In this document: positions 40,356 to 62,065 of the stretch, in pieces
How the letters are laid out: every line of letters begins with the position of its first letter
Numbering within the stretch: position 1 is the first letter of the stretch
NCBI GenBank assembly: GCA_006218035.1
Contig: VBWC01000010.1
Coordinates: 203,572-267,571 of the forward strand
Source of the DNA: Gammaproteobacteria bacterium
GTDB lineage: Bacteria > Pseudomonadota > Gammaproteobacteria > VBWC01
Direction of reading: 5' to 3'
Length of the DNA stretch: 64,000 bases
The notes under the pieces: model-generated
Database searches by the model: none
Told to the model about the DNA's origin: nothing
What the model saw: the letters and a program-made list of their open reading frames with translations, nothing else
Made by a program: the position numbers and the translations under genes

Positions 40356-40361
40356 GAGGGA

Positions 40362-41912: not shown

Positions 41913-41935
41913 GCAGCGCTCGGCGGAGACTAGAC

Positions 41936-42748: not shown

Positions 42749-42791
42749 CTAAAAACTTCTGACCTCAGCTAACAATGGGAAGTTTACCATG

Positions 42792-43886
42792 TCATAATCT
42801 ATAGACCTCCAAAGTTTTCTTCGCGACCGTTTCCCAATTATACTTATCGCGCAACCACGCGCGAGTGGTTTCATGCGCAATATTTGATTGCTGAACGGAG
42901 GAAAATCGCTTTATAAGCTCCTCAAGTTCAGAAATATTCCCCAACGGAAAATAATTCTCTTTCGGCAACCCGATTTCCAGGTTAGCGGGAATATCGCTGG
43001 CGATCACGGGAACCCCATAACTTAACGCCTCCAGCATCGCAATAGGCAGCCCCTCATGCGACGAAGGAAGGACGAAAAGGCCGGCATGTGCGTAAAGTTC
43101 GCGTAGCGCCAGACCGCTCTGATAGCCAGTGAGTACAATGCCCGGAACCTTGTTCGCTTCGGCGCGCATTGTTCTTGAATATTCGTCCGGGTGATCCGCG
43201 TCGCCCACCAATACAAGCTTCCATTCAGGAAGGCTGGCTTTGCTGAACGCGCGCATCAGATCCAGATGCCTTTTCTCCGGAACGAAACGACTTACCAGGA
43301 GGACATATCGCCGCCTTTCGATACCATATTTATCCAGGGCGTTCGTAGTCTCGGGAATCTCGGGCAAATCAACACCGTTGGGAATGACGACCGAGTCAAC
43401 GCCGTGTTGCTCTTTTACAAGCCCTCTGATGACCTCGGAAATCGCGATACGCTGATTGGCATAACGCATTCCCCATTTCTCACCCAGACGCAATAACCAA
43501 CGCGCGAAGCGACCCCACTTTTCGCGATCATAATCCGGGCCATGATGCGTCACGACCACTCGCAGCCCCAGCAATCTGGCCAATGGCGTCATGATTGCCG
43601 GCCCTATCGCATGCATATGCAGAACATCCGGTCGGGCAACCGCCGCGTAAAGCACTCCCAGAAAGGTGTGAACAAAGGCCTCGATACCGTTTATACGCGG
43701 CGCCCACAATATTATAAACCTGACCCCGCTCCATTCCCGTGTTTCACGGGGCATGTAAGGTGACCGGACGATCACATCAACCTCGCAACCCAGACGGACC
43801 AACAACGGATATAGATGTTCCGCATGTTTTTCGACGCCGCCCTGTACATCCGGAAATCCGCGCAGTCCCAGCGCCATTACCCTCAC
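42792..43886 (-). CDS. GT4-family glycosyltransferase with a DUF1972-like N-terminus.
   Basis: SSHEGLPIAMLEALSYGVPVIASDIP (the EX7E region). Confidence 0.8.
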   Translation of the reverse strand: MRVMALGLRGFPDVQGGVEKHAEHLYPLLVRLGCEVDVIVRSPYMPRETREWSGVRFIILWAPRINGIEAFVHTFLGVLYAAVARPDVLHMHAIGPAIMTPLARLLGLRVVVTHHGPDYDREKWGRFARWLLRLGEKWGMRYANQRIAISEVIRGLVKEQHGVDSVVIPNGVDLPEIPETTNALDKYGIERRRYVLLVSRFVPEKRHLDLMRAFSKASLPEWKLVLVGDADHPDEYSRTMRAEANKVPGIVLTGYQSGLALRELYAHAGLFVLPSSHEGLPIAMLEALSYGVPVIASDIPANLEIGLPKENYFPLGNISELEELIKRFSSVQQSNIAHETTRAWLRDKYNWETVAKKTLEVYRL

Positions 43887-45118
43887 GACCGCGCACCCGC
43901 GACGCCCAGCTCACGATATATCTCCAGCATGCGGCCCAGGTAATGTTTCTCGCTAAACTCTCTCTCCATCCATGATCGTCCATAGCGGCCCATATCCGAT
44001 ATTTGCGTGTCTTTGTATGCTGAAAACTCGGCCAGGACCGCGGCCAGCCCCTCTACAGACCCGGATTCAAAAGTCGCCCCGGACTTCCCCTCATGAATCA
44101 ACTCAGGAATTCCGCCGATGGAGGCGCCGATTACGGGCTTGCCCAACGCGTAACCTTCCATGACAGTTAACGGCGCATTTTCATATAGCTCTGAAGGCAA
44201 AACCACAGCTCTTGATAAACGCACAACCTCATGCAACGCATCACCTCTTAAGTACCCAAGAAAATCAACTTTCGCTTTCATATTTTCGGCAAGCTTACGC
44301 AACGCGGCTTCTTCTGGTCCAACCCCTACGATCTGCAACGCTGCCCCAGCAATAGCCGCCGCCTTAATTAGCGTTGCGACACCTTTTTCGGAATTTAATC
44401 TACCGAAGTATACAAATGTCTTTCCTGGCCGATACTCGGGGGAAAAAGAATGAGTATCTATAAAATTGGGTATGTATTTAAAGCGACTGCGGTCCCATCC
44501 CCACTCAACCATTTTTTCTAGATGGAATCGGCTTGGTACCACAAATCGGTCAACGTATTTCGAATAGCTTCCCAACAACGAATGTAAAATGGTTTCAATC
44601 GCTACCAGAGTACTAAGCGCATAAGACTGCTTGACACATCGATGAACGACGACATTGTAAACCCTGCCGCCCTTACATCGTTCACAGATACCATCATGGG
44701 TAAGCATCTTGTAGGCTGGACAGGCCAGCTTCAAATCATGAAGCGTCAATACCACCGGAACACCATTTCTCTTCAAAAGACCAAGTATGGAAGGAGAAAT
44801 ATGATGGTAGATGTTATGCAGATGGCAGATATCCGGCCTGGCCCGGGTTAACAACCGCGAGAGGTTACGCCGGGCCTCCAGAGAATATATTGTCTTCGGA
44901 ACACGCCGGAGCTTGCCCAGAATATTGTATTGCTCCCCATATTCAATTTCGTCTACGAAATACTCTGACCAGGGCGTTTCGATATTCTTTGGATGATGCA
45001 TGGCAAACGGAATTACCTGCCATCCGCTATGCTCGAACAGCTTGTTATGCTCGAGAAATACCACCTCTGCTCCGCCACGGGGATAATAATAGTTGTTAAC
45101 AGACAGCAATATGGGCAT
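43883..45118 (-). CDS. GT4-family glycosyltransferase, a paralogue of 19147..20502.
   Basis: It is colinear with the other gene over its whole length: MPILLSVNNYYYPRGGAE... versus KRLLSINNYHYRRAGSD.... It has the same Cys4 cluster (C-PAYKMLTHDGICERCKGG...C) and PSELYENAPLTVMEGYALGKPVIGASIGGIPE. Confidence 0.85.
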   Translation of the reverse strand: MPILLSVNNYYYPRGGAEVVFLEHNKLFEHSGWQVIPFAMHHPKNIETPWSEYFVDEIEYGEQYNILGKLRRVPKTIYSLEARRNLSRLLTRARPDICHLHNIYHHISPSILGLLKRNGVPVVLTLHDLKLACPAYKMLTHDGICERCKGGRVYNVVVHRCVKQSYALSTLVAIETILHSLLGSYSKYVDRFVVPSRFHLEKMVEWGWDRSRFKYIPNFIDTHSFSPEYRPGKTFVYFGRLNSEKGVATLIKAAAIAGAALQIVGVGPEEAALRKLAENMKAKVDFLGYLRGDALHEVVRLSRAVVLPSELYENAPLTVMEGYALGKPVIGASIGGIPELIHEGKSGATFESGSVEGLAAVLAEFSAYKDTQISDMGRYGRSWMEREFSEKHYLGRMLEIYRELGVAGARS

Positions 45119-45156
45119 TAATCTTGTCCTTCTAACCTTTTTCGCAGGTACACCAG

Positions 45157-46503
45157 CTAACTATGCAAGGTTGTTCTTACAGGGTTATATTGCGCCCACC
45201 GACGTTCCGCGGAGATATATCCCGATATATACGCGAACAGGAAGACCAATACATTCGCGTAAAACAGATTCAAATACGGCACGGTAAGCAGCACGATAAC
45301 CAACACGCCGAACCAACCGGCTGCCAATACGCCTAGTGTATTTTTTTCTTTCCCGATCTTATAGGTGTCATACATTAGAATTATCAGAAATGTAAACAAA
45401 ATAATTATGCCACCGACGCCGACTTCCCATAGTAAAAAGCTAGACAACGTTTCGCTGCTGATTTTTCCGATGCGGCCAGAATACGTGCCCGAGAATACGT
45501 TAATAATCGACGGCGATGCATTACCCACCCCTAAACCCACCCATAACCTCAGCGGGTTATCCGACAGATTTTTTAAAGGCAGCAACAGCTTTTCTACTCG
45601 CCCCCCTCCTTCATCCGGCGTAATCAGCTCCTCTGGCAGCTGCAATCCGCTTCCTATCCTGTTTTTCTCCAGCAAATTTTCCCGGGTTGCGTCCGACTCA
45701 CTGTATAAATAGCTATCTGCCTCCTTATCAACGAATTCACTGATTCCTCTCGCCCCCCACATACTACCCGCATAGTCGTAAATGACCACAAAGCCAGTGG
45801 TTAACAAAGCCCCCAACACAGGAATAACCACTAATTGCGCCATCGATAGACGATTTGAGGCAACAATATAGGGAACCACGATCGCCAGCGGTAACAACAG
45901 CAATGTTACTTTGGTTTCATTAATCGTCGTTGGCAAGAATAGTGCTAACGTTAATAGCAACATCTGCGGAAATCGAAGGCGGCCTCTGACATAAAAGGCT
46001 ATCACTACCGCAATCACCGAAAGTAAGAAAATTGAAAGCACCCCGGACGCGCTTTCTCCGAGCGTTCCCGTCACAAAGTCTCCGGTCGCGGCGTCCCTGT
46101 ATTGAACAAATCTTTGAAAAAACGCCAGTGGCGATTGCATTAATCCCAAAATCAATATGAGCTTGATCTGCCCGCTGATTTCCTGTTCAGAAAATCGGTA
46201 CACTGCAGGCAGTAAAAAAAGCGGTATCCATTTTAGGTAAGGCCGCAATCCGGTGACAATCGTGCCGGGATCTACTGTATTTAAAATCATCCCCGATACC
46301 GCGTGCAGCACTGCCAGCACCCCTAACACCAGATATTTCGGACTCAAGCATAGAGAACGATATGTCGCTATCCTCGCCAGAATTACCACGAGGACAATAC
46401 CTGACAGAATCTCCGGAACCAGATTAAAGGCGCGGTGAATGCCTGATGCGAGATACGATGAAAAAAATACCGCGAGAATTATCGAATATACTAATTTGTT
46501 CAT
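45157..46503 (-). CDS. Polytopic membrane protein of the O-antigen ligase/polymerase (Wzy-like) type.
   Basis: Ten or more predicted TM helices and a large periplasmic loop, within a GT-rich polysaccharide locus. There is no diagnostic motif, so this is a context-based call. Confidence 0.55.
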   Translation of the reverse strand: MNKLVYSIILAVFFSSYLASGIHRAFNLVPEILSGIVLVVILARIATYRSLCLSPKYLVLGVLAVLHAVSGMILNTVDPGTIVTGLRPYLKWIPLFLLPAVYRFSEQEISGQIKLILILGLMQSPLAFFQRFVQYRDAATGDFVTGTLGESASGVLSIFLLSVIAVVIAFYVRGRLRFPQMLLLTLALFLPTTINETKVTLLLLPLAIVVPYIVASNRLSMAQLVVIPVLGALLTTGFVVIYDYAGSMWGARGISEFVDKEADSYLYSESDATRENLLEKNRIGSGLQLPEELITPDEGGGRVEKLLLPLKNLSDNPLRLWVGLGVGNASPSIINVFSGTYSGRIGKISSETLSSFLLWEVGVGGIIILFTFLIILMYDTYKIGKEKNTLGVLAAGWFGVLVIVLLTVPYLNLFYANVLVFLFAYISGYISAERRWAQYNPVRTTLHS

Positions 46504-46512
46504 CTCAACACG

Positions 46513-47691
46513 TCACGACAGTTCCCGACGATATCTGCCGCCAAGATAATCGGCGAAGTGACGTCCCTGGATTGTCCAGTCGTACGTGTCCCGCATAAAA
46601 TCACGCGCCGCTCTCGCCGCGTCGGTAAGCTGACCCCGATGATCGAACGCATATTCGATGGCTACTCGAATATCACTGGCCTCGTATCCCGTCGTCCACA
46701 CTACAAAATCCTGCCCGTCGGCGACATCCTTATGGGCTGGAATCGGGGTCAGAATAACAGGCTTCTCACATGCCATATATTCAAACACCTTAAGCGGGCT
46801 TGAAACGTTCCACTCGAGCAGATCCGGTAGCGGACAAATACAACAATCGGCCTGTGCGATTCTATTTGGAATATCTTCATACGGAACGTACCCGGCAAGC
46901 GTGACGCTATCGGTGACTCCGTGCCGACGAACGATATCCTGCAGCGCGATCTTTCCTGAATCCGGCCCGACAATCACAAACCGTATATGGCCTCGATAAG
47001 CCGGCGACAGCAGCGACATCGCTTCAATGACCTTATCTATTCCACGAGTTCCATAAATACTTCCGTGGTAAAAAACGGTGAATAGTTTTCTGCTTATTCC
47101 ACGATCCGGCGCTTCCACAGGTCGGAAGACGCTCATATTCACACTGGACTGCCAGATGACATAATCCTCGAATACGGCACGAAACTCCTGTTCTATTGCG
47201 GATTTCAATCGTTCAGTGATAAACGAATAGCTCGACGCGTATTTTCGCAATTTTCCGATCGTAAAAGTCCAAAACACCCAATGGTCTACCTTGCCTTTGA
47301 AAGAGCTTAGCGCTCTCAACGGCAGTGTCCGCACATCGAGATGCAGTTTATGGAAGCCGCGTCTCTTTAGGCTGGGGGCAATAAGCAACGATTCCGGTTT
47401 TAATATAATAATATCGTCTCTGCCGGCATTCCTAAGTACCCATGAGAGCATCCTGATCAATAACGCTATACGAAAGATAAACGGAATGTCCCATACCCGC
47501 AGCGATACAACATCCAGATTTTCATTCTCGTATGGCGCATTTTCATAGCCTGTGACAAGCGTAACGTCGAACCCATGCGCCTGAAGTACCTTCGACATTT
47601 CAATCCACGGACTTTTATTGGGCTTGGTATCGAAGCGATCTGCGTCCAACCATATGACTCTCCGATTATTAGTTTTTCCCACGCGCATCAT
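46513..47691 (-). CDS. Glycosyltransferase, GT4-like.
   Basis: C-terminal FEYMACEKPVILTPIPAHKD resembles the GT-B donor-binding region. Confidence 0.6.
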   Translation of the reverse strand: MMRVGKTNNRRVIWLDADRFDTKPNKSPWIEMSKVLQAHGFDVTLVTGYENAPYENENLDVVSLRVWDIPFIFRIALLIRMLSWVLRNAGRDDIIILKPESLLIAPSLKRRGFHKLHLDVRTLPLRALSSFKGKVDHWVFWTFTIGKLRKYASSYSFITERLKSAIEQEFRAVFEDYVIWQSSVNMSVFRPVEAPDRGISRKLFTVFYHGSIYGTRGIDKVIEAMSLLSPAYRGHIRFVIVGPDSGKIALQDIVRRHGVTDSVTLAGYVPYEDIPNRIAQADCCICPLPDLLEWNVSSPLKVFEYMACEKPVILTPIPAHKDVADGQDFVVWTTGYEASDIRVAIEYAFDHRGQLTDAARAARDFMRDTYDWTIQGRHFADYLGGRYRRELS

Positions 47692-48797
47692 CCGACTAAT
47701 TCCTTCACGACGCTCTCAATATTCTTTTCCGAGTGATTTTCTATCGCATAGCCTCTTGCGGAGCTTCCCATCGACTGGCGAAGTTGCCTGTCGCCAATCA
47801 GTTTCTCAATGTCCCGGCAAAGGGCGGTGAATGATCCTGAGCAGTACCCGATGCTGCGGGATGACAGAATATTATCGGGATCGACATCAAGACTAACCAC
47901 CGGAACCTCGCGCATCCAGGCTTGAATAAAAGTGTTAGGGAAGCCTTCATAACTGCTGGTATTCACGAAAATGTGCGATTGCGCCAGAACGGCGTTTACC
48001 TCTTCCTGAGCAAGCTCTCCAACATAGTCCAGCGAACGTACTTCCTTGATTTTCTGAATAAGCTGTCTACACCACGGCGAATTGTCCGCGCGGCCAATCA
48101 TTATAAATTTTACGTCGACATCTGACTGATATTTCTTGGCGAGATCGATGAATAACTCCGGTCTTTTCATCGGTTTTAAATTGGACACCCATACTACCTT
48201 GACAGGGGTATCCTGTTTTTTCGGTTCGACGGGTACCGGCTGGAAGTTGGGGACGATCCGCGCGGCGGTAACTCCGTAGTGCTTTTTAAGCAACCCTGCT
48301 TGTTGTTCCGTCTGTGCAATAATGCTGGTGCTGTTACGAATGCCGTACTCCAGCGCCTTCTTTTCTATATACCGCGATACGGTATTCGAAGACCTGTTTT
48401 TGTCCATTCGAAACGGCAATACATTCATCTCACTCGAGATATGCCACACCAACTTGCAGTTATTTCTTTTAGCATAGTAAGCCGCTATTCCTGTATAAGC
48501 ACCGCCGACGCGCTGATAAATAACGTGCGGTCGTATTTTATGCAGCGCCGCTAACAATGGTCGCGCATCAAGCAAATTACCAACACGCATGGAAAAGGGG
48601 CTGACATTAATCTGCTCCACCTTGTACCCAGCCGGTTGGAACGCCGGATCGGCTTGTCGAGCAACGTAGGTGATATCGAATCGTGTCTGAGCCACAAGTA
48701 CATCCAGCAATAGTGATATCTGTTGCTCCGACCCGCCAAAACCACCTGTCCAATGACACGGAGACACAATACACAATCGCCTCTCGCCAGACCTCAC
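47688..48797 (-). CDS. Glycosyltransferase, GT4-like.
   Basis: NTSSYEGFPNTFIQAWMREVPVVS (E...G...PVV). There is a 4-bp overlap with the downstream gene. Confidence 0.7.
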   Translation of the reverse strand: MRSGERRLCIVSPCHWTGGFGGSEQQISLLLDVLVAQTRFDITYVARQADPAFQPAGYKVEQINVSPFSMRVGNLLDARPLLAALHKIRPHVIYQRVGGAYTGIAAYYAKRNNCKLVWHISSEMNVLPFRMDKNRSSNTVSRYIEKKALEYGIRNSTSIIAQTEQQAGLLKKHYGVTAARIVPNFQPVPVEPKKQDTPVKVVWVSNLKPMKRPELFIDLAKKYQSDVDVKFIMIGRADNSPWCRQLIQKIKEVRSLDYVGELAQEEVNAVLAQSHIFVNTSSYEGFPNTFIQAWMREVPVVSLDVDPDNILSSRSIGYCSGSFTALCRDIEKLIGDRQLRQSMGSSARGYAIENHSEKNIESVVKELVG

Positions 48798-49193
48798 GGA
48801 TAGCTTCTCCTTAAGTACCTATTTGCCAGTTGAATAAATGCCATTAGGCTTTGAACGGTGTCTGCGACGATACCTAAGCGGGCAGGTTTCAGCGACTAAC
48901 CTGGTCCGGGCGAACCAGAACCAAACATCGCTGCAAGCCGCTAATTTGAAACTTTATGTGGAAAATTATACTACACAGACACTCTTTGTTTATACTTATA
49001 AACAACGGCTTACAGTCATTCGTGGCATCCGGCAACCCGGCTAGGATGGGCGCCAAGGCCTTAATCCTCAAGAACGCCACCGAAGTGACGGACATTTTCC
49101 GTGGACAGCGGGTTCGATATGGCGATAACTGTATTGTCGATCTTGTTGGCTGGCACGAAGATTGCGATGCGACGTAACGTCACATTGCTCCAC

Positions 49194-50912
49194 TTATTGA
49201 TCTCCTAATGCGGTCCTGGAGAACGCGCTCGCGTCGCCATCCAGTATTTCGTGCATTCGACGAATAATGTATACGCGGAATGCCAACAGATAAGGGTCCA
49301 ATAACAAACCCTGATTCCTGATAGAAAGCATCGATCTAATCCGGCGAATAATTCTCTCCCCTTTGTTGCTCGATAGCTTCCCTGACAAGGAGGATTCTTT
49401 CGCCAACAACTCGAGAGCGAACCGACTCAGGACGTCGATACGCTTACTCCCGGCATGCTCCTGACGCAGGCCATTGCGAATGGCAGACGCGACTGTGTCG
49501 CTGCGTAGAATATCGTCTCGCGATTCGATCGCAGCACCTGTCGCGTATCGTATACCCGGACCATTATGCGTGACCATGTGTTTAAACGCGCTCTTATTCG
49601 TCCGCAAACTGTCCGGCATACATCGTACCTGTGTAATGATTTTCCTGGACAGCAGAGGTGCGCTGATTTCGACATAAGAAAGCTTAAGATCGCTGAGCGC
49701 CGCAAATACAAAAGGAAACTCGAATAACGTATTTGCTCTGTCCCGCCATGTTTCGCGACTTTCATCCGGTTGCCTTTCGATATTATGTGGCCATACCTGA
49801 ACGCCCGCCCCGAATTCCTTTTGAAGCATCCCGACATTTTCGAAATCGGATAGCACCTGCATGCCCATGTTTTTGTAGACCTGCCGATCACTTCGTATAG
49901 CGCGACATCCGAAAGCCTCATCACCACGGATAATACCTTGATAACCCCTCTCATATAGAGCTTTCCAAATCGCGAATCCGTCCATATATCCGGAGATGTG
50001 GTCAATTCTCCCTTCGCCAGCGACGAGAAATCGCGTAAAGAGATATTCCACATTCTCATCGGACAAGTCCGTATAGAAGTACTGATGAGGAACGCGATAA
50101 TGACTAGCCAGATCCCTCGCCACACATGCATCGCCGTTCTCATCTGACAGCGCCGCCTTGACGCCCCATGTGACTGTCTTCAGACCAGGCCTGTCCTTCA
50201 ACATCTGGAGTATCGCCCGGCTATCGTAACCGCCAGACAATGGCAGCACCCATCGATCAAAATCCAGATCCAGCCCATCAAAAGTATCCTGGATTGAGTC
50301 TCTGAGACGTTTCTCATGCTCATTCTGCGAACTGCTATCCGCACGGAAAGCAACCGGCGCTCTGTCGAGCTTGAGCTCCCAGCTCTCCCTATCCAGGATG
50401 AGGCGCGCATCCCCTGGAAGACACCGTATTCTTTTGTCCCAGGATAGCTCGGGCCCCAAGGTACCGGACGACAGCATCCAGGGGTAGGCAGTCTCATTTG
50501 GTTGGTAGCTTTGCAGAAAATAAACGATGGCCCGCTGCGAGGTAGCGGCGATAAACAAGTCGTCAGTCTTTACATACCAGATCGTACGCGACGCAAGGAT
50601 ATCCGTCAGAAGCTCGACCGTCTTCTCAGCCCCCCTAAACAACGCGTAGCTGCCATCCGGCGCGTCCGATTCCGGCCGCCACCAGTCGGGGCTGTGACCA
50701 AACAATGTCCCCATGCAAACACTGCATCCCTGGATCCTTAAAGAGTCTGTCGGATTAATAATCCCAAGCAGGATGCCGTCACCTTCAATAACCCTGGGCG
50801 GTACCGGCTTAATATTATCCGGCGTCAACCGCGCCGATAGCGCCGTGATGTGGCGGCCGCCAAACTTGACCGGCGCCCCAATTCGGGTCGTGACAAAAAC
50901 CGCTTTCGACAT
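49194..50912 (-). CDS. Asparagine-synthetase-B-like amidotransferase paralogue without the N-terminal Cys nucleophile.
   Basis: PP-loop LPLSGGYDSRAILQML. The N-terminus is MSKAV... rather than MCG.... Confidence 0.7.
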   Translation of the reverse strand: MSKAVFVTTRIGAPVKFGGRHITALSARLTPDNIKPVPPRVIEGDGILLGIINPTDSLRIQGCSVCMGTLFGHSPDWWRPESDAPDGSYALFRGAEKTVELLTDILASRTIWYVKTDDLFIAATSQRAIVYFLQSYQPNETAYPWMLSSGTLGPELSWDKRIRCLPGDARLILDRESWELKLDRAPVAFRADSSSQNEHEKRLRDSIQDTFDGLDLDFDRWVLPLSGGYDSRAILQMLKDRPGLKTVTWGVKAALSDENGDACVARDLASHYRVPHQYFYTDLSDENVEYLFTRFLVAGEGRIDHISGYMDGFAIWKALYERGYQGIIRGDEAFGCRAIRSDRQVYKNMGMQVLSDFENVGMLQKEFGAGVQVWPHNIERQPDESRETWRDRANTLFEFPFVFAALSDLKLSYVEISAPLLSRKIITQVRCMPDSLRTNKSAFKHMVTHNGPGIRYATGAAIESRDDILRSDTVASAIRNGLRQEHAGSKRIDVLSRFALELLAKESSLSGKLSSNKGERIIRRIRSMLSIRNQGLLLDPYLLAFRVYIIRRMHEILDGDASAFSRTALGDQ

Positions 50913-50988
50913 AAAACTCCCACACGCTCCGATTCCCCCTCGGCATCAAAGGTATCGACAACCGCGAGGTATTCTTAAACATCGACGG

Positions 50989-52755
50989 CTAGGTCTTGAG
51001 GGACTTCGCTGTTTTGTCTACGACCAGAGCACCTGCATCTTCACACAACATGCGATCCATCTCGCAAATTATGTACGCCCGAAACGCCAGCTTGTATAAA
51101 TCCAGCTCGATACTCGACGACGGGCGCCAAAAGCCGGCTACAACGGGCCTTACCGCATCGATAGCCTTTTTGGGCAGAATATTCTTGAGGATCGCCTTCA
51201 AATTCGTATTGGCAGGCCTATAGGGGGAGGCGAGTTGACCATCGCCGAAAATATGATTTTTCAACAGCTGAATTAAATCGGGGGGAAACAGCTTCTCGGC
51301 GCGCGCGCTGAGTAATGTCCCCATGATATGGTCGATCACTCTTGTATCTTTCAAGATATTTGACGACATTTCTATTGCTGGATATTCCGCAAACGGAATG
51401 TCCCTGTTTGCAGCGACAACGATTTTCTTGAACAACATTCTGTCTGTCCGGAGACGATCCGGCATCTTTCGAACGGCGCGAACTATCCTCCTGGACAAGA
51501 GCGGGTTAACAATTTCGACGTAGGAGTTTTTCAAATCATTCAGCGCTGCCATCACGACGGGTATGCGGTAACTTTGATATAAACGATCTCGCCATGCCTC
51601 TAACGACTCCATGTCCCGTCTATCAAATATCGTGGGAAGGTGCTGTTCAAACTGCTCATGCAACGGAACCTTTCCAAGGTTCCGATAATCGCTCAAAAGT
51701 AACAACTCAACGGAACGCCTTACGTCGATCGGATTTGCTACCGGTATCCAGCCGAATACTGAATCTCCGCGGATTACGCCGTAATTACCAGACTCAAAAA
51801 GATGCTTCCATATCGAAAACCCATCCATGTATCCCGATATGTGATCCACGCGACCTTCGCCGGCAACAAGAAATCGCTTGAATATTTCATTCACCGGCTC
51901 ATCAGATAAATCCGTTTCCAAATACTCATGAGGCATCCCGTACTTCTGTGCGAGATCGCGCGCGACGCAGGCATCGCTTTTCTTGTTCGCGAGCGCGGAC
52001 CGCAGGCCCCATGTGATTGCTTTCAGCCCTGACCGACCCCTCAGCATCTGCAGGATCGCGCGGCTGTCGTAACCGCCCGACAACGGCAATATCCACTTAT
52101 CTAAATCCAGATCGAGATGATCGAATGTCTCGCTTATCGCTTTCCGCAGGTTTCTTTCGTGACCTCTATCAGGAAGATTCTCAGCAAAGAAGTTAACCGG
52201 CTCGGCTGATAACTTTGCTGTCCAGGTAATTCGATCGAACATCAGGCGCGCGTCCGGCGGCACGCTTTGAATTCTCTTGTCCCACGACAATCCGGGGCCG
52301 AGAGTTCCCGACGACAACATCCATGTATAAGCGCTGGTGTTCGGCTCGTAGCTTTGAAGAAAATAAACGATGGCGCGTTGCGACGTGGAGGCGATAAACA
52401 GTTCATCCGTTTTCGCATACCAGATCGTCCGAGACGCAACGGTATCGCTCACCAGTTCTACTTGGTATTCGCCACTTCGAAACAACGCGTAGTTACCGTC
52501 TGGCGCATCGGCTCCGGGCATCCACCAATCATCATCTGCGCCGAAGAATGTTCCCAGACATACGCTGCTATTGTTTATTGGTAACGACGCGACCGGATTT
52601 ATGACACAGATCGCGATACCGTGCCCCTCTACCACTAGAGGCTGACGAGCGGTGATATTACCGGGGGTCAGTCGCTTCGATATTTCTTTGATCGCTTGCC
52701 CCATCCGAGGCATTTGATCCGCCGATCGAGAGCATAAAAGTACCAGTTTAGACAT
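50989..52755 (-). CDS. Second AsnB-like amidotransferase paralogue, also without an N-terminal Cys. It is a tandem duplicate of 49194..50912.
   Basis: PP-loop ILPLSGGYDSRAILQML. Strong colinearity with the neighbouring paralogue, for example LFRSGEYQVELVSDTVASRTIWYAKTDELFIASTSQRAIVYFLQSY. Confidence 0.7.
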   Translation of the reverse strand: MSKLVLLCSRSADQMPRMGQAIKEISKRLTPGNITARQPLVVEGHGIAICVINPVASLPINNSSVCLGTFFGADDDWWMPGADAPDGNYALFRSGEYQVELVSDTVASRTIWYAKTDELFIASTSQRAIVYFLQSYEPNTSAYTWMLSSGTLGPGLSWDKRIQSVPPDARLMFDRITWTAKLSAEPVNFFAENLPDRGHERNLRKAISETFDHLDLDLDKWILPLSGGYDSRAILQMLRGRSGLKAITWGLRSALANKKSDACVARDLAQKYGMPHEYLETDLSDEPVNEIFKRFLVAGEGRVDHISGYMDGFSIWKHLFESGNYGVIRGDSVFGWIPVANPIDVRRSVELLLLSDYRNLGKVPLHEQFEQHLPTIFDRRDMESLEAWRDRLYQSYRIPVVMAALNDLKNSYVEIVNPLLSRRIVRAVRKMPDRLRTDRMLFKKIVVAANRDIPFAEYPAIEMSSNILKDTRVIDHIMGTLLSARAEKLFPPDLIQLLKNHIFGDGQLASPYRPANTNLKAILKNILPKKAIDAVRPVVAGFWRPSSSIELDLYKLAFRAYIICEMDRMLCEDAGALVVDKTAKSLKT

Positions 52756-52805
52756 TACGTAACATCGAACACCTGATAATTATCGTTGAATTGCTCCATC
52801 GCCTT

Positions 52806-54737
52806 TTAAGTAATCATTTCGCCTTCGTCTTTGATCCACTTCTGATACCACATCTGAAACACCAGAATCGTCCACACGATGTTGTATTCGGAACCGTCCT
52901 TGAGATATCTGTTCTTCAGGTAAGTCACATATTCCACGTCAAAAAAGCCGTGCTCTCTCAGTCGCGGTTCTTCAAGATGATACAAAAGCAGTTTTGACAA
53001 ATCGCCACGAAGCCATTTGTAAACAGGGACGCCAAACCCCTTCTTGGGCCTGTCCATCATCGCCGAGGGGACGTGCCTATGTACGATTTTCTTTAAAATC
53101 TTTTTCCGGTTCCCGCGACCATACTTATACGATAAAGGTAACCGCGCCGCGAACTCGATGATCCTGTGATCCAGAAGTGGTTCGCGGCCTTCCAGGCTCA
53201 CCGACATCGTGGCCCGATCAACCTTGGTCAATACGTCATCTACCATGTAGTTCTGATAGTCGATCGCCAGACTCTTGGTGATATCATCGATACCGCCGCT
53301 TAATTTGGTGGCGTTATTAAAGAACGCGTTTTTCGTATCTACCGTTGTATTGAGTAATCGATAGATCCGGTAATCCGTGCATCTCCCTTGTAGAAAGATA
53401 TCGATTAACTGATCGACAGAGCAGCGCGATCTGAGCTTCCAGAATTGGTTTAATAGAATCTGAACGTGCTTGTTGTAACCACGGTACGATTTGGAGACGT
53501 TCGATAAATAACCTGTGGATGCGTTAAATGATCGCCTTAGCCAGGGCGGATACCTGCGTATCTTATGGTAGTCGTCAACATATTCTTCTGTATGGTCATA
53601 TCCGACGAAGGTCTCATCTCCGCCATCAGCGGATAATGCCACCGTTACGTTCTCTCTCGCCATACGACTAACAAGCATCGTTGGAATGGCAGAGGTATCG
53701 ATAAACGGCTCATCATAGTAATACGGCAGCGTCGACACGATCTCTTTTGCGTCCGCCTCGGAACAGTAATATTCGGTATGATCAGTACCGAGATAGGCGG
53801 CGATGGCCTTCGCCTCGTTTGCCTCGTTGTGGCGCTTGTCGTCAAATCCAATCGTAAAGGTCTTCAGCCGGTCGGTCATGTCAGTCTGCAACAACGCAGT
53901 CACCGCAGTGCTGTCATAACCACCGCTCAGGAAAACGCCTACCGGAACGTCTGCGACCATGCGATACCGAAAGGCCGATACCAGCAACTTTTCCATTTCA
54001 TCAACCGCGTCGGGCTCCGAAATATCGAGCAGCGGCATATTGTAATAATCGATAACATCCCAGTATTTTTCTTCTTTTAGGTCCCGGGAATTCAAATCGA
54101 TCGTTAAGTAATGGCCCGGCTTGAGCTTGTAGGTATTCTTGAAGATCGTGTACGGAGCAGGCACGTATCCGAACCTGAAAAACAACGGCAACGCGTCAGC
54201 GTCGATTTCTTTTTTAAAAGCCGCGGTTTGATGAAAGGCCTTGAGCTCCGAAGCGAACAGAAATAAACCGTCTTTATAACTGTAATATAGCGGCTTTACG
54301 CCCGCCCGGTCCCTGAAAAGATACAGCTTCTCTTTTTTTTTGTCGTAGATGATGAATGCGAACATGCCGATCAGCTTATGTACCGCGTCGACCCCCCATC
54401 TTATATAAGCCTTCAACAACACCTCAGTGTCGGAGGAAGTGAAAAACGTAAAGCCCTCCTTTTTAAGCTCTTCCCGTATTTCAACGTAGTTATATATTTC
54501 GCCATTAAACGCGATTACGTGGTCGCCGCTCTCATCCTTCAACGGCTGCGCAGCACCGGCGGACAAATCGATAATCGACAATCTCCGGTGCCCCAGACCG
54601 ATATGTGCGTTGTCCACTGGGTAGAACTCGTAACCGGAACCGTCAGGCCCGCGATGCCATAAAACATCGGTCATGCGCCTTAGCTCGTCACGAGTCAGGC
54701 GCTTTCGGAAATCACAGAAACCGGCTATACCGCACAC
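52806..54737 (-). CDS. Asparagine synthetase B-type glutamine-hydrolysing amidotransferase. It is probably an amidotransferase for a sugar or uronic acid, given the context.
   Basis: Canonical MCGIAGF N-terminal nucleophile (class II GATase) and the SGGYDS PP-loop. Confidence 0.85.
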   Translation of the reverse strand: MCGIAGFCDFRKRLTRDELRRMTDVLWHRGPDGSGYEFYPVDNAHIGLGHRRLSIIDLSAGAAQPLKDESGDHVIAFNGEIYNYVEIREELKKEGFTFFTSSDTEVLLKAYIRWGVDAVHKLIGMFAFIIYDKKKEKLYLFRDRAGVKPLYYSYKDGLFLFASELKAFHQTAAFKKEIDADALPLFFRFGYVPAPYTIFKNTYKLKPGHYLTIDLNSRDLKEEKYWDVIDYYNMPLLDISEPDAVDEMEKLLVSAFRYRMVADVPVGVFLSGGYDSTAVTALLQTDMTDRLKTFTIGFDDKRHNEANEAKAIAAYLGTDHTEYYCSEADAKEIVSTLPYYYDEPFIDTSAIPTMLVSRMARENVTVALSADGGDETFVGYDHTEEYVDDYHKIRRYPPWLRRSFNASTGYLSNVSKSYRGYNKHVQILLNQFWKLRSRCSVDQLIDIFLQGRCTDYRIYRLLNTTVDTKNAFFNNATKLSGGIDDITKSLAIDYQNYMVDDVLTKVDRATMSVSLEGREPLLDHRIIEFAARLPLSYKYGRGNRKKILKKIVHRHVPSAMMDRPKKGFGVPVYKWLRGDLSKLLLYHLEEPRLREHGFFDVEYVTYLKNRYLKDGSEYNIVWTILVFQMWYQKWIKDEGEMIT

Positions 54738-54857
54738 AGATAATCCCTTTCAAATATTGACTACACCGGCACTCCGGACTATCCGAAGCGACATGAGAGC
54801 GCCCGCAATATCGCTCAAGAACCAGACGCCTCTATAGGCAAACTTCTGGAACTACCA

Positions 54858-56078
54858 CTACTTACGCCTCAGGCATTCGATGGCATCCCGGTAGACATCC
54901 ACATATTGACGAGCCACGTTTACCCAATCGTATTGTGATGCCACTATCCGCGCTGCCGTGGCCATGTCGCTCCGAACATCACGACGCGCAAACACTTTTA
55001 AGACCGCATCGGCCAACTCCGCCTCATTCGATGGCGCGACCAGGTACCCGTTCTTACCGTCGCTGACAACATCCTTGTTTCCGGAAATATTAGTGGCCAC
55101 GACGGGGATCCCTGCTCCCATCGCTTCAAGTACCGCCAGTGACAGCCCTTCGGAATTGTCATCGGTACCCGCGGATACATAAAGTTCGCTGCTGCATAAC
55201 AATTCGGCAAGATAATCCGGCTCAGCTTGCTGAAGCGATGTTTTTGTTACGCGATTTAGAATATTTTGCGACGGGTTAATTCCCCCGGTAAGAATAACCT
55301 TGCCTTCCATGCCGGCCTCCTTAATCAGGGGCCTCAACACTTCTGTCTTCTCACCAACAATCACCAATCTTGCATGCTGGTCTTGCGCGAGTATTCGTGG
55401 CATCGCCCGAACCAGGTATTCCTGCCCTTTGCGCGGATTATAACGTCCTATCGTCACTATCAGCCGCGCGTCCGGTTCGACTCCGAGCCACTCACGCACA
55501 TTCAGCGTGGCTGCTTGACCGAATCGTTTTAAATCCACGCCGTTCGGCACCAGCCGGATTTTATCAGCGGCGGCTCCTGCCTCGATTAATACATCTCTTA
55601 TCTTCGTACTGATCGCGGTAATACGTTCTGCGGTTTTCAACGCCAGAACAATTTTCTGTCGGAGGCCCGGATCGAGCATGAGGCCGTAGCCGATCTCCGG
55701 AATCGTCTGTATGTCCTCCCCGTGCGGCGTAATGACCAGCGGAATACTCCTGGTTCGTTTTAAACGCGCTGCGGTGTACCCGGTCGGATAGGTGTTGTGC
55801 GCGTGAACGACATCACAGGACCAAAGCGCAGCATCCAGCGCCAGATGCGCCATTGCTACCTGCTCAGGGAACATGCCCCTGAGCGTTGGCCATCGATGGA
55901 CCGGGTAGTTAAACCGCAGCTGGCGGTGCTTCCAGAACCCCGCGGGCCCGACAACCCTGACCTTGTGTCCCAGCGTTAATAATGCATCCGCCAGATAGTG
56001 GATGACGAACTCCCTTCCTCCCAGGGCCGGGAGAAAACTATTCACATATAAAACAATATTGAGTTGACTGCCGTTCAT
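54858..56078 (-). CDS. GT4-family glycosyltransferase.
   Basis: GLSLAVLEAMGAGIPVVATNISGNKDVV. Confidence 0.8.
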   Translation of the reverse strand: MNGSQLNIVLYVNSFLPALGGREFVIHYLADALLTLGHKVRVVGPAGFWKHRQLRFNYPVHRWPTLRGMFPEQVAMAHLALDAALWSCDVVHAHNTYPTGYTAARLKRTRSIPLVITPHGEDIQTIPEIGYGLMLDPGLRQKIVLALKTAERITAISTKIRDVLIEAGAAADKIRLVPNGVDLKRFGQAATLNVREWLGVEPDARLIVTIGRYNPRKGQEYLVRAMPRILAQDQHARLVIVGEKTEVLRPLIKEAGMEGKVILTGGINPSQNILNRVTKTSLQQAEPDYLAELLCSSELYVSAGTDDNSEGLSLAVLEAMGAGIPVVATNISGNKDVVSDGKNGYLVAPSNEAELADAVLKVFARRDVRSDMATAARIVASQYDWVNVARQYVDVYRDAIECLRRK

Positions 56079-56124
56079 CGATACGTCCTTTCACGCCGCG
56101 TTCCATAGTGACACGTGAACAAAA

Positions 56125-57207
56125 CTAAATTAACCTGCCATATAGCGTCGTAACCTGATCCGCAACCCGCTCCCAACTGAGCGCAAGCGCACGTTCGCGG
56201 GCAGCACGCCCCATATCCATTCGTCGAGAATCGTTACCGTACAGGTAATTTATTCCATCAACAAACGAAGAGACGTCCCCTCGTTTCGTCAGAACAGCCG
56301 CGGACTCGTCCACGTAATCGCGTATCCCGACAATGTCGGTCATTATGGTCGGCAGTCCGCACGCCATCGCCTCAAGCAGCGCATTATTAGTAGTTGCATC
56401 CGTTACCGGCATGACAAACAGCTGGGACGATTGATACAACGCCAATAGTTCCTTGTCACTTACCCCATTCAAAAGCGTCACATTATCGAGCCCGGAGAAA
56501 CGACCATACTCGGATGGAGACGTTACCACGACAAACTCTATTTCCTTGCCGCGCAAGATCCTGGCCGCCGCAGTTAAAACGTCAAAATCCCTGAGATGCG
56601 ACCCCACAAACAGGCAGCGAAACTTGTTGCTCTTGGCGGGGGTCGTGGGTGGCTGGAAGTATTGAACGTCGACTCCATGTGGAATATAGTGAATCCGGTC
56701 CTGGCCTACGAGATCTGAAAATATATCCCGCTGCACCGTGGATACTACGACTACCGCGTCCAGTCGTCTGATCGGCCTGGTGTCATAAACGATTCTACGA
56801 AACTTTTCCTGAGGCAAATGGTACGTGCAAACTATCGGCTTCGGTTTGCCAAACTTCTTTAACCGGCCGAGATAGCAATATGAATTCTCCCCGTAGAGAA
56901 AATGAAACACCTGTCCCGCATCTCGCCACCATCGTGCGCCAGCCGCCAACTCACAGATCAAATTACCCCGCTGGTACCACTGCGACCCGGCCTTCCTGAT
57001 AAGTGGCTTTAAGACTTTTGCTACCGCCCGTTGACTGAAAGACCAGTTGACTGGTGGTCTAATGACGTTACAAGGAAGGTAGTCAACCAGCCGGTCATAG
57101 CCGGACGGTCCTGCATGACCGCTCATCCGCATCGAGATTACAACCGCCGAGGGTTCAGCGCGTTGTTGCCTGGCGGGCAATTCATCGCCACTCCGTTCGA
57201 AAGTCAT
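56125..57207 (-). CDS. GT4-family glycosyltransferase.
   Basis: NNALLEAMACGLPTIMTDIVGIRDYV. Confidence 0.75.
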   Translation of the reverse strand: MTFERSGDELPARQQRAEPSAVVISMRMSGHAGPSGYDRLVDYLPCNVIRPPVNWSFSQRAVAKVLKPLIRKAGSQWYQRGNLICELAAGARWWRDAGQVFHFLYGENSYCYLGRLKKFGKPKPIVCTYHLPQEKFRRIVYDTRPIRRLDAVVVVSTVQRDIFSDLVGQDRIHYIPHGVDVQYFQPPTTPAKSNKFRCLFVGSHLRDFDVLTAAARILRGKEIEFVVVTSPSEYGRFSGLDNVTLLNGVSDKELLALYQSSQLFVMPVTDATTNNALLEAMACGLPTIMTDIVGIRDYVDESAAVLTKRGDVSSFVDGINYLYGNDSRRMDMGRAARERALALSWERVADQVTTLYGRLI

Positions 57208-57350
57208 TGTCTTAGAATCGGCATATAAACATTGTCAGCCAATGGTCCGTACGATCCGGACCAACGGCCGAGAAAACCCGTAACATACCGCGCGCCATAT
57301 CCCGACCCAAACCGCGCGGACCTTGCGAGGGGCCGCAAATACATCACGCA

Positions 57351-60300
57351 TTACGAGACCAGCCTGGAAACGAGCCCGCTATGCACATGCGGTTTAATCT
57401 TCCTCCAGTTTTTGTGGTACCAGTCGACTATCAGCTCCCTGACCATCGCAATCGACCCCTGGGTTATTGAGCTACAAACCGGCGCCACATCCTCCAACAG
57501 AAACGGCAGCTCCAGAATCTGCGAGTACTGAAAATATTGATCCGGATTTTTTTCAATATCCTCCACGGCCTCCTCCAGCGTGCGCGCAATGGACTCACGG
57601 TCGCTGCCTGGCCCTTCCGTGACCATGGCGAGATAAACGACGCCGGACCACAACATCCTGGTACCGCCTTGCAATCTATGTATTAGGCCGATGAAGACCT
57701 GATCGTTTCTGGCAAGAATTTCGTTGACGCGATCAACATATATCTGCGGATCAATGCCAGCGCTGACGAGCCACTTCACCGTGAACGACAGAATAAACGG
57801 CAAATCTTCCAGATCTCCACGATCATGCTGAAGAAATACACCCTGCGCGGCCCCTGTCTCCTTCAGGTTGCGTCGCCGCCATAGCCAACGCCCCATGACG
57901 ATATTTTTTGCCACCTTGAAACACGCGAACACCCGGACGATTTCGTCCTCCAGCTCAGCAAATACAGGCTGAAGCACATCCTTCCTGAATGCGGCAAATG
58001 CGTGAGGATTATCCTGCACCTGAATCAACGCCACGAGAATATCCCGAAAATCGGGATTTTCCACAACACCGGCCCGCAAGAACGCTACCGCTGAATTTAC
58101 ATTGTCGCTTAATAGCTGCGCTGACGCGGCATTCGAATCAGCGTTGCTCCGGCCATACAATGTCATCAATTCATCAACGACCCGCGAATCAAGAAACCGG
58201 CGGTCAAGTTTCGAAATAGCACGAAATCGCGTAATTGCTTCCGCCTCTTCTCGCTCTCCCGCCGCGGTCAGATACCCGCCAATCGCATGATACAGACAGA
58301 GCTTGTTCAGCAAATCGGCGCCCGTTTCCGAAAGCGCAACCGATCCGCCAACAAGAGCCTTTGCCAGCGTCCCAACATCGATCAAATGCTCGACCAGTCT
58401 GGGATCCTCTGCCTGCTTTTTCATTAAGACATTGAAGTCGTTGTCATGCAGCGCAGGATATGTCCCATTGACGATACGCAGCCCTCTCTTGTTACGCCGA
58501 ATGGACAACTTCTCTTTTATGTTATAGGCAAAGACCAAACCGAAATCTGAATTTGCGCTGACATCGGGACTTTTCTCAACGAATGTCGTCGGGTCAGCGA
58601 CCAATGCCTTGGGCCCTCCTTCAATAAACGCCTCGTAGCGCTTCGATCCGGAGAACAATCGATACAGATTTGGCAAATGCCGGACCTCTTCAATCGGCAT
58701 GACAACGGCCGTGTTGGTCATCGCATTGTCGATAACAACATGGTTTCGAAGACCGATTATCTCGATCGGCAGGTCATCCGAAATCACCAGATTATCGGCA
58801 CAGGAAAGCAGCTTCACCTTTTCCGGCTGACCCAGACAAACATTTCCATCGCCGCGATCGAATCTGTCGTGTCCCTGATAAAACCGCTTTACGCTTGTTC
58901 CCGGGACACCAAAATCCTCGAAGCGTGCTTCAGGATCGAGAATCGACGTCGCCAGCCTGACTTGACCATCGTCGTCCCGTTTCCATGGCGCGGCGCGGGA
59001 AAGAAGATTCTCAGCGAGATTTCCGGATTGCGGCTTGCCAGGCACCAACTTTCGATAGTAGAACTCGTTGAATACAATCGCACCGCATTCCCACGCGAGG
59101 CTCCCAGGCGCATTTCTGACTTCTTCAAAGTCTTCCTGACCGGGCTTTTCAATAAACCGGGGTACCTCATAGGACCGATAGGAGTGTAATTTTCTGGTAT
59201 ATAAGTGGTGCCCGAATCGAATATCGATAATCGCGTTCTTGTCCGCGGGTTTCCCTATGCTGACTATGCAACTGTTCTCGCGCGCGGTAATCAAGGCGCA
59301 GGCTACTGCATCCTGAAATCGCGCATAGGGGGCGATCACATTATCGCCCATGGAGATAATCACCATGCGATTTTGCTGATCACCGTCGATGGGCAGACCA
59401 TCCAGCGCAAGGCCCACCGCCGGGATAGTTCCCTTGGGTTCCTTTTCAATAACGCAGTTCTCTATCGGAACCCCTTCTTGCCCCGCCTGATCGGACACTT
59501 TATCCAGCGCGTTTGCACTGCACAAAATAAATATACGATCCGGCCTGATGAAGTAATCGTAGGTGAATCGTCGAATGGTCTCCTGCAATAACGAACGGTC
59601 GCCAAGCAAGGAATAGGACACCGGCTTCGGACGGTTTTCGCAGGAGATAGGCCAAACCCTCGACCCGATCCCGCCGGCCAGTATCGCCACATAGGTATCG
59701 TTCAGAATTGACGACAGGTAGTATTTACTCAGACCACGCAAACAGAACATGTTGGTCCAGTAGCTTTGCGTGTCGGCCTCCAGCTTGCCCTGAAATTCCC
59801 TCTCGTAGAAACCATACTGAAAATAGCCATCGCCGCCCTTTTTCATCTCGAGCAGCTTGGCCGCCAACCGGTCCATCACCGGCTGCCAGGCAGAATCGAG
59901 TCGCCCCATCTGCATCAGATCGGCGGCAAGGGCCAGAACCTGGGAAAGCGCATCGGTTCTGAAACGTGCCAGCGGTACGTCTTCTGACGAGTCGATGACC
60001 TGGGGAATCTCACCCTCTTTACAGTGCCCCAGAGCCCACTCGGTCGCTCGCCTGGCCGACTCGATAAGAACGTCGTTATTGGTCTTGCGTCCCACATGCA
60101 ACAGGCCTTCGGTAGCGTAGCAATGGGGATGCAATTCGGTTCGACCGCTGGATGTCTCGAAGTTGCCCCGTAGCGACTGGAACTGCAGCACGTTCCGACA
60201 GATGGATTCGGCTGCGGAGAAGTATTTCTCCTGATTCGTGGCTTCGTACAGATCGATAAGTGCTTCGGCGACTTTGGAATGAAATGCGCCAAAGCGCCTC

Positions 60301-60845: not shown

Positions 60846-60892
60846 TATCCCGATTCGCCAATTGTCCCCGTATAAAACTATTCAGATCAAAC

Positions 60893-62017
60893 TTAAAGTT
60901 TGTGAGCTTGAATCGTGCTGTTAACGATTCTTGAACCGGCCTTTCCGTCACCATACGGGTTGTGAGCGAAACTCATCGCTTTATAAGCCTGGTCATCGTC
61001 CAGCAATCGCTCTGCCTCCGTCACCATCAGTTTCTCGTCGGTACCGACGAGACGCACCGTACCCGCCTGAACCGCTTCGGGCCGCTCCGTGGTGTCTCTC
61101 ATCACCAGCACCGGCTTCCCCAACGACGGCGCCTCTTCCTGGATACCTCCCGAATCGGTCAGTATCAGGTATGACCGGGTCATCAGATAAACAAATGGAA
61201 GATAATCCAGAGGGCTTATCAAATAAACATTACCGGTGCTACCCAGTATTCGATTGACCGGCTCCTGCACGTTGGGATTCAAGTGTACCGGGTAGACAAT
61301 CTGCACATCATTGCGCGCGGCCAGGGTAGCAAGCGCCCGGCATATGCGCTCGAAACCACCGCCGAAACTTTCGCGCCGATGACCCGTCACAAGAATCAGG
61401 CGCTTGCTCGGGTCAAGAAACGGGAAAAGCCCTGACATCTCCCGGTTAAGTCCGTCGTTGCTCTCAAGATAACCCGCCACTTCCAGCAGTGCATCTATGA
61501 CGGTATTTCCGGTGACATGAATCGACGATTCCGGAACACCCTCGCGCAACAGATTGTCCCGCGCCCAACTGGTAGGGGCGAAATGAAGGTCCGCAATTCC
61601 GGATGTCAGCTTGCGATTGATCTCCTCTGGCCACGGAGAATAAATATTCCACGTCCGAAGCCCTGCCTCGACGTGGCCGACCGGAACTTTGTGATAATAC
61701 GCCGCCAGAGTAGCAGCGAGCGTCGTCGTCGTGTCGCCATGCACCAGTATTCTGTCAGGCTTCAACGCCGAGATCACGTCCTGCATACCTTCCAGTACGG
61801 CACAATTGATCGCTGTAAGATCCTGCCCCTTCTTCATGATATTCAGATCGTAATCGGGCGTTATCTTGAACAAACGCAGTACGGAATCGAGCATCTCACG
61901 ATGCTGGGCAGTGATACAAACGGAAGTGCTTATGCGTCCGTCGGCCCGCAAGGCCTTAATGACGGGGGCCATCTTGATCGCTTCTGGCCGCGTACCAAAA
62001 ACGGTTAACAATTTCAT
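60893..62017 (-). CDS. wecB: UDP-N-acetylglucosamine 2-epimerase, non-hydrolysing.
   Basis: [19 protein letters not shown]..., HVEAGLRT, and colinearity with WecB/MnaA over the whole length. Confidence 0.9.
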
Positions 62018-62065
62018 ACGGGATACGTTCTCTCGTGCTTCTATTATTGAATTCTGGAATCGGAA

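Follow-up and report, generated by a model that had tools for sequence, protein, structure and literature searches.

Within a polysaccharide biosynthesis island of the 64,000-nucleotide stretch of DNA considered here (contig VBWC01000010.1 of the gammaproteobacterial assembly GCA_006218035.1; henceforth, the window) lie three co-oriented genes of the asparagine synthetase (AsnB) superfamily (Table 1). The first in the direction of transcription codes for a canonical class II glutamine amidotransferase. The two that follow, which we call B and A, code for proteins that begin MSKLV and MSKAV, lack the N-terminal cysteine nucleophile, and retain the ATP pyrophosphatase motif (PP-loop) of the synthetase domain, which in both proteins sits within LPLSGGYDSRAILQML. 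An earlier note on this DNA had described this arrangement, with the upstream protein as a functional class II glutaminase, and our analysis bears it out, the upstream enzyme being one that looks functional. The locus matches the genes FD165_1938 and FD165_1939 of a Gammaproteobacteria metagenome-assembled genome.

Table 1. Features of the AsnB-superfamily locus and the island that contains it
Feature	Position in window	Strand	Remarks
Canonical class II glutamine amidotransferase, AsnB-type	52806..54737	-	643 aa; GTG start; MCGIAGF; related to the WbpS/eps_aminotran_1 type
TGC codon of the catalytic Cys of the canonical enzyme	54732..54734	-	Residue 2; Cys1 once Met is removed
Cys-less AsnB-superfamily protein B	50989..52755	-	588 aa; ATG start; MSKLVLLCSR
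PP-loop LSGGYDSR of B	52060..52083	-	ATP pyrophosphatase motif
Cys-less AsnB-superfamily protein A	49194..50912	-	572 aa; ATG start; MSKAVFVTTR
PP-loop LSGGYDSR of A	50217..50240	-	
Polysaccharide biosynthesis island	31461..64000	.	>32 kb

The canonical protein displays the hallmarks of a glutamine-hydrolyzing enzyme: Cys1 is accompanied by the motifs RLSIIDL, NGEIYN and SSDTEV, the Pfam models GATase_7, GATase_6 and Asn_synthase (305 bits) are recovered, and the AsnB model TIGR01536 gives 474.7 bits, above its cut-off of 267.1. Together with a PP-loop, these features mark it as an AsnB. Its best NCBIfam match is TIGR03108, the XrtA/PEP-CTERM, WbpS-type amidotransferase model; the score of 540.7 bits lies below the cut-off of 816.9, and hence we regard the protein as AsnB-type and as WbpS-like by resemblance only. 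By analogy with WbpS, WbqG and PGN_1234, it most plausibly makes a primary uronamide independently. An AAGGGA Shine-Dalgarno-like sequence precedes its GTG codon, and its homologues at other loci begin MCGI. Public gene calls for the same locus (L088 in our sample of genomic contexts, the loci of which are labeled with L-numbers) begin the canonical gene at Met22 (17344-19212; 622 instead of 643 aa), whereby the MCGIAGF N-terminus is lost, and begin B at Met15 or Met18 (19305-21029; 574 or 571 instead of 588 aa). The family alignments and ribosome-binding sites support the longer forms of both genes.

In-frame stop codons occur 11 codons upstream of A and 8 codons upstream of B, with no ATG, GTG or TTG between these stops and the respective starts; therefore, an N-terminal cysteine cannot arise through an alternative start, and the description of both proteins as Cys-less stands. 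The ATG of A is preceded at 5 nt by a GGGAG ribosome-binding site. The N-terminal strand that follows the start, of the form M-[S/A]-K-h-h-h-h-C-x-R, is kept across 74 aligned homologues, and this conservation argues that the MSK start is the true start of A and B. The intergenic gaps among the three genes are 50 and 76 nt, and because terminator-like sites are no commoner than in shuffled sequence, the genes are probably co-transcribed. The gap after gene A (48798-49193; 396 nt) is unusually long and contains an AT-rich stretch with a promoter-like TAAACA-16-TATAAT element (10/12 matches; minus strand, 48992-48965) upstream of the next glycosyltransferase gene.

A widespread family around the two Cys-less proteins

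Along their whole length, A and B share 49% identity; with the canonical protein, their identity is just 24% over 216 residues (pairwise E 6e-4). Each scores 20.3 bits with the Pfam Asn_synthase model (PF00733), for which the gathering cut-off is 21 and a match is precomputed for many of their homologues, and 15-16 bits with TIGR01536, against its cut-off of 267. Among curated models, the one for albusnodin/ikarugamycin macrolactam cyclases matches them best, yielding 32-37 bits where its cut-off demands 300. These distances imply that A and B are not duplicates of the neighboring gene. The view that the locus holds three AsnB-family genes is thus valid at the level of superfamily and fold and does not extend to a closer kinship; in particular, the canonical gene did not give rise to A and B by recent tandem duplication. 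By sequence comparison, they fall into a family of their own, as yet without a name, whose proteins have about 570 residues.

A word-indexed search finds at least 1070 homologues; the best 120 of these are nearly all of about 550-600 residues, apart from a few shorter truncated calls, and are 43-54% identical, with two near-identical relatives (90-100%) among them. When 1.84 billion cluster representatives are searched with a profile, 775 clusters match at E <= 1e-30, a number that rises to 1281 at E <= 1e-10; the family comprises no fewer than 775 clusters at 50% identity. In contigs sampled at one genome per species, 163 loci with a relative are distributed over Gamma- and Betaproteobacteria, Bacteroidota, Chloroflexota, Cyanobacteria, Deinococcota, Planctomycetota, Verrucomicrobiota, Acidobacteriota, Latescibacterota and Desulfobacterota, along with one Methanomassiliicoccaceae archaeon. 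Isolates with family members include Chromohalobacter spp., Methylobacter marinus, Noviherbaspirillum denitrificans, Anaerophaga thermohalophila, Flexithrix dorotheae, Pricia antarctica and Pseudozobellia thermophila. The database names of these proteins are "hypothetical protein", "asparagine synthase-related protein" or "asparagine synthetase B family protein". A literature search of incomplete coverage found no account of Cys-less AsnB homologues in glycan loci, and it turned up no published Chromohalobacter glycan structure.

Among 250 full-length members, not one starts with MCG and 245 keep the PP-loop signature SGGxD[SC]R, from which it is evident that the orthologues of A and B are not ordinary AsnB. 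The second residue is never Cys; 135 of the 250 have Ser there and 86 have Ala, and with Ala in 34% of the members, a Ser-type N-terminal nucleophile (Ntn) at this position is ruled out. The cysteine at position 8 of the N-terminal strand (B codon 52732-52734) is kept in 66 of the 74 aligned homologues; it is likewise ruled out as a nucleophile, being internal to strand 1 and replaced by Thr8 in A.

Fold and catalytic residues

From the 74 homologues, to which the counts out of 74 below also refer, we built an AlphaFold2 model of B with a mean pLDDT (predicted local distance difference test score) of 92.1 and a pTM (predicted template modeling score) of 0.92. In Foldseek comparisons with the PDB, the matches of this model cover both domains; the top one is β-lactam synthetase (1mc1; E 4.8e-14), and the others include E. 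coli AsnB (1ct9; E 6.4e-14), the hydroxyamidotransferase TsnB9 (7ylz), carbapenam synthetase CarA (1q15; E 6e-12) and human ASNS. Identity in these matches is 10-14% and the TM-scores are 0.5-0.6, with the alignments to 1ct9, 6gq3 and 8sue spanning about 550-650 columns. The family accordingly retains the two-domain AsnB fold, i.e., an Ntn-like domain and a PP-loop synthetase domain. A profile-profile alignment to a set of canonical AsnB sequences (hhalign, with E. coli AsnB as master) likewise covers the full length, with a probability of 97.8% and an E-value of 6e-12. A profile search of PDB sequences does not find AsnB and reaches only the PP-loop of QueC (E 0.016), which points to strong divergence of the family.

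The correspondence with AsnB is uneven along the two domains (Table 2). The PP-loop, the Mg-binding Asp and the "DR" and "E..P.L" motifs are all present, and two of the four glutamine-binding positions (the R49 and N74 equivalents) are kept, with the other two (E76 and D98) not. To these the family adds invariant residues of its own, namely E300-G301-R302, Y309, D311, R329, E383 and K409 (the last in 73/74), and many conserved tryptophans (W77, W112, W145, W158, W178 and W249).

Table 2. AsnB residues and motifs and their counterparts in the Cys-less family
AsnB	Family
Cys1	Ser or Ala
R49	R28; Arg or Lys in 64/74
N74	N53, in 70/74; next residue Pro, not Gly
E76	Variable
D98	V65
PP-loop	Invariant in 74; S226, G227, G228, D230, R232
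D351 (Mg-binding Asp)	D331, invariant
"DR" and "E..P.L" motifs	Kept as D390, R391, E414, P418
T322/T323/R325 segment, E348	No conserved counterpart in profile alignment; low alignment confidence there
K449	Position 457: Lys in 34/74, Glu in B, Thr in A; low alignment confidence

Such a pattern bears on the suggestion that A and B are dead pseudo-enzymes, acting as scaffolds or regulators that organize glycosyltransferases or bind substrate. The loss of the nucleophile and the poor conservation of the E348 and K449 equivalents are what this explanation would lead one to expect. We nevertheless hold it to be highly improbable, because the PP-loop and about 40 polar and aromatic residues of both domains are invariant across phyla, as is typical of an active enzyme. 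Residues 86-200, which form the second half of the N-terminal domain, match the ATP-binding core in their degree of conservation, which is lowest in the last 120 residues of the protein; both domains are under strong purifying selection. A and B together deviate at just eight points in the 148 columns of at least 85% conservation, with none of the deviations in the PP-loop. With nearly all conserved columns thus retained, both look like active enzymes.

Genomic setting and candidate activity

We called and clustered open reading frames at 87 loci, i.e., 86 fetched loci and the window, which amount to 82 non-redundant loci once duplicate records are merged. In these 82 loci, the family is always embedded in polysaccharide clusters with glycosyltransferases, flippase or polymerase genes and sugar-nucleotide enzymes. 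Family 4 glycosyltransferases (GT4) are neighbors in 47 of them; the commonest companions other than glycosyltransferases are epimerases of the short-chain dehydrogenase/reductase (SDR) superfamily (22/82), canonical AsnB (13/82) and TviB-like nucleotide-sugar 6-dehydrogenases (12/82), with Wzc/Wza, Wzx and priming transferases occurring in fewer. No consistently adjacent partner gene that could reveal the substrate emerges from the 82 loci, the adjoining genes being generic GT4s.

The family is single-copy in 78 of the 86 loci that score a family match. Tandem sets of two to three true family copies are seen in the window, in its close relative L007, and in L009, L002, L024 and L030, and a neighbor-joining tree indicates that the multiplications in Bacteroidota are independent of those in Gammaproteobacteria. 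In the same tree, A and B are not sisters; this, and the predominance of single copies, makes the pair look like two diverged specificities and not a conserved two-gene unit. The earlier note had taken the tandem duplication to suggest two distinct amidation sites. A conserved A/B heterodimer stemming from an ancient duplication is unsupported, given the single-copy loci and the independent multiplications.

Two further observations concern the company of the family. Next to family members in L009 (8139-9962), L054 (11701-13560, minus strand), L077 (3725-5548) and L049 (14841-16667, minus strand) is a second type of Cys-less AsnB homologue of 607-619 aa, which begins MPGLVG, MPGIVG or MAGLLG, with Pro or Ala in place of the Cys of the MCGI motif; at 63-67 bits with TIGR01536, it is nearer to canonical AsnB than A and B are. 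A polysaccharide deacetylase (PF01522) is found near the family gene in seven of the 82 loci (L066, at 6502-7527, L063, L072, L076, L047, L049 and L085), including all of the Chromohalobacter clusters. From the latter association, a free amino sugar suggests itself as a candidate partner in the reaction.

Canonical, MCG-type AsnB occurs within 10 kb in only 16 of the 87 loci, and the family must therefore work without an adjacent glutaminase. An obligate partnership with canonical AsnB is rejected on this co-occurrence, and a glutaminase supplied in trans by the neighbor, one of three options that had been raised for A and B, is unlikely as a general mechanism. The same count weighs on a rival explanation, under which A and B are ammonia-dependent uronamide synthetases that form a WbpS-like primary amide, either from free NH4+ or from ammonia passed on by the canonical enzyme in a hetero-oligomer. 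It is established for E. coli AsnB that synthetase domains of this type use ammonia directly, and the canonical MCG enzyme lies directly upstream in the window, L007 and L009. Moreover, uronamide formation by WbpS-type enzymes has been shown genetically (PMC7468200). We nonetheless judge this explanation unlikely: apart from the rarity of the neighboring glutaminase, three enzymes for one simple chemistry would be redundant in a single cluster, the residues of the aspartate/ammonia site of AsnB appear not to be kept, in a part of the profile alignment where confidence is low, and the closest relatives by sequence and fold take bulkier amine nucleophiles.

Of the three options, which also included ammonia-dependent amidotransferases, that of adenylating enzymes recruited for a different amidation (for which the note gave a uronamide or an acidic sugar as examples) fits best, since the nearest curated family is that of Cys-less macrolactam cyclases (matched by 72 of the 74 homologues) and the top fold match is β-lactam synthetase. 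We put at about even the chances that A and B work without a glutaminase and, as ATP-dependent adenylating enzymes, synthesize amides on the glycan repeat unit. By analogy with these relatives, we infer carboxylate adenylation, amide formation and the nature of acceptor and donor as follows. In the cytoplasm, the intact PP-loop synthetase domain would adenylate a carboxylate with ATP, and the adenylate would then be joined through an amide bond to a nucleophile other than glutamine-derived ammonia—an amine, an amino acid or possibly free ammonia. The substrate would be a sugar of the repeat unit, presented either as a nucleotide sugar or as an undecaprenyl-linked oligosaccharide. The Ntn-like N-terminal domain would be kept as a structural or substrate-binding part, as in β-lactam synthetase, carbapenam synthetase and the lasso-peptide cyclases. 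A and B, as old and diverged copies, probably differ in substrate or site specificity.

Several points weigh against this proposal. Neither E348 and K449 of AsnB nor Y348 and K443 of β-lactam synthetase, which occupy the equivalent positions, have conserved counterparts in the profile alignment, where confidence is low at these positions; this suggests a different catalytic machinery and leaves adenylation as a proposal. An enzyme of the uronic-acid type, dehydrogenase or epimerase, occurs in only 25 of the 82 loci, a count that stands without a background rate for comparison, and neither the 64-kb window nor the adjoining 6 kb has a nucleotide-sugar 6-dehydrogenase or any further gene that clearly belongs to a carboxy-sugar pathway. 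PP-loop enzymes are also able to activate carbonyl oxygens other than those of carboxylates. This last property raises the alternative of another PP-loop chemistry on the glycan, such as intramolecular lactam formation as in β-lactam synthetase, conversion of an acetamido to an acetamidino group as in WbpG/PseA, or the use of an adenylated small acid to N-acylate an amino sugar that has lost its N-acetyl group. The rank of β-lactam synthetase as top fold match and the deacetylase neighbors, including those in Chromohalobacter, speak for it. However, the fold E-values do not separate β-lactam synthetase from AsnB, the NCBIfam model for WbpG-type N-acetyl-sugar amidotransferases is unmatched at E <= 0.1, and the neighbors include no recurrent HisH/HisF-like partner gene, so that we consider this alternative quite improbable. 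Returning to amide synthesis by adenylation, a broader formulation, which we regard as possible if rather doubtful, is that the family, found across hundreds of lineages, represents a missing glycan-tailoring class, that of AsnB-derived, glutaminase-free amide ligases that would attach amines or amino acids to the acidic sugars (or acyl groups to the amino sugars) of lipid-linked repeat units, with tandem copies installing different substituents.

The island around the three genes codes for a WcaJ-type priming transferase, about nine GT4s, WecB, an SDR epimerase, a methyltransferase, an acetyltransferase and a polytopic membrane protein, and the polysaccharide cluster runs about 6 kb beyond the end of the window. 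Its G+C content is about 0.50 vs about 0.60 in the first 30 kb, and the GC skew turns steadily negative across it (30000-64000 compared with 1-30000); both features are consistent with horizontal acquisition. The polytopic membrane protein (45157-46503, minus strand; 448 aa) has no family match and is possibly a Wzy-type polymerase. At 57351-60845 (minus strand) is a gene for a 1164-aa fusion of a GH127/six-hairpin-like N-terminal region, a nucleotidyl-transferase (GMP-like) domain and a long C-terminal half without a family match; together with two GT4 genes, it shows conserved synteny upstream of the Cys-less genes in L002 (where it specifies 1157 aa) and L088. Two possible glycan-processing enzymes are an 812-aa protein with a malectin domain (37917-40355, plus strand) and a 407-aa protein with a faint GH42-like match only (40362-41585, plus strand). 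A second small sugar-tailoring cluster (14839-21182, plus strand) combines an ATP-grasp ligase, two DegT/DnrJ/EryC1 aminotransferases, a GT4 and two small open reading frames, and could be another amide-forming or amino-sugar pathway. Elsewhere in the window, a gene for a 1007-aa protein (7399-10422, minus strand) fuses lipoyl, E3-binding and 2-oxoacid acyltransferase (E2) domains to a complete dihydrolipoyl dehydrogenase (E3), and the E1 α and β genes (10868-12852) adjoin it.

Comparison with known amide-forming systems

When set against known systems, the family falls outside AsnB, TIGR03108, the lasso-peptide/macrolactam cyclases and the WbpG type, and works most like the Cys-less relatives of AsnB. 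With E. coli AsnB it shares full-length homology at the profile-profile level and the equivalents of the PP-loop, D351, R49 and N74; it does not retain Cys1, E76 or D98, has no evident conserved equivalents of T322/T323/R325, E348 and K449 in a part of the alignment where confidence is low, and stays below the Pfam and TIGR01536 cut-offs. WbpS, WbqG and PGN_1234 (the eps_aminotran_1 family of TIGR03108) are AsnB-type enzymes of O-antigen and exopolysaccharide clusters that amidate a sugar carboxylate (PMC7468200), and the b-Cool locus of Bordetella likewise specifies an AsnB-type amidotransferase of a sugar carboxylate (PMC12407052). WbpS-type proteins retain Cys1 and the glutaminase pocket, which A and B do not, and TIGR03108 is touched, weakly, by only four of the 74 family members. 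The WbpG/PseA model TIGR03573 gives no match at E <= 0.1 with A and B, or at E <= 0.01 with the 74 members.

β-lactam synthetase and carbapenam synthetase resemble A and B in combining a two-domain AsnB fold with the absence of an N-terminal Cys, an intact PP-loop and an N-terminal domain that serves as a non-glutaminase module. The differences are that A and B are only 10-14% identical to them, occur in polysaccharide clusters instead of β-lactam pathways, and bear an extra helical C-terminal region of about 170 residues; the Tyr348/Glu382/Lys443 set of β-lactam synthetase has no evident conserved equivalents in the family, in a part of the profile alignment where confidence is low. The lasso-peptide and albusnodin/ikarugamycin macrolactam cyclases (NF033535 and NF033561) are, like the family, Cys-less AsnB homologues, and they couple a side-chain carboxylate, activated by adenylation, to an amine that is not ammonia. 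Of these, NF033561 is the nearest curated family, with a best E-value of 2e-15. The family nonetheless scores 32-53 bits against the cut-off of 300 and has glycosyltransferases as neighbors. None of the loci examined has a precursor peptide or leader-peptidase gene beside the family member, and all have polysaccharide genes, on which grounds we reject a role as cyclases of ribosomally synthesized and post-translationally modified peptides.

Bacterial O-antigens, capsules and exopolysaccharides, above all those from marine and halophilic bacteria, commonly carry amino acids and amines in amide linkage to uronic acids. To our knowledge, the enzymes that install these substituents are known in few cases only and have unrelated folds. 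One is Cj1438 of C. jejuni, an ATP-grasp amidoligase for an acidic sugar. Another is VpsH of V. cholerae, a CapK/acyl-CoA-ligase-like enzyme that forms an amide on a uronic acid (PMC13463779). The outcome in both is the one proposed here for A and B, i.e., an ATP-dependent amide on a uronic acid of a capsule or exopolysaccharide, and it is reached from unrelated folds, ATP-grasp in the former and ANL/CapK-like in the latter.

The chemistry itself would not surprise a specialist; the interest lies in a large, uncharacterized family that may fill a gap in glycan-tailoring enzymology. Its members are labeled as "hypothetical" or, misleadingly, as "asparagine synthase (glutamine-hydrolysing)", and the Met22 start in public calls hides the catalytic Cys of the canonical gene. 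A conserved and easily recognized family that is limited to polysaccharide clusters is a concrete, testable candidate, and it occurs in culturable Chromohalobacter, Methylobacter, Anaerophaga, Flexithrix and Pricia. If the proposed activity is true, A and B would join the ATP-grasp and CapK/ANL-type ligases as a third, independent enzymatic route to such amides.

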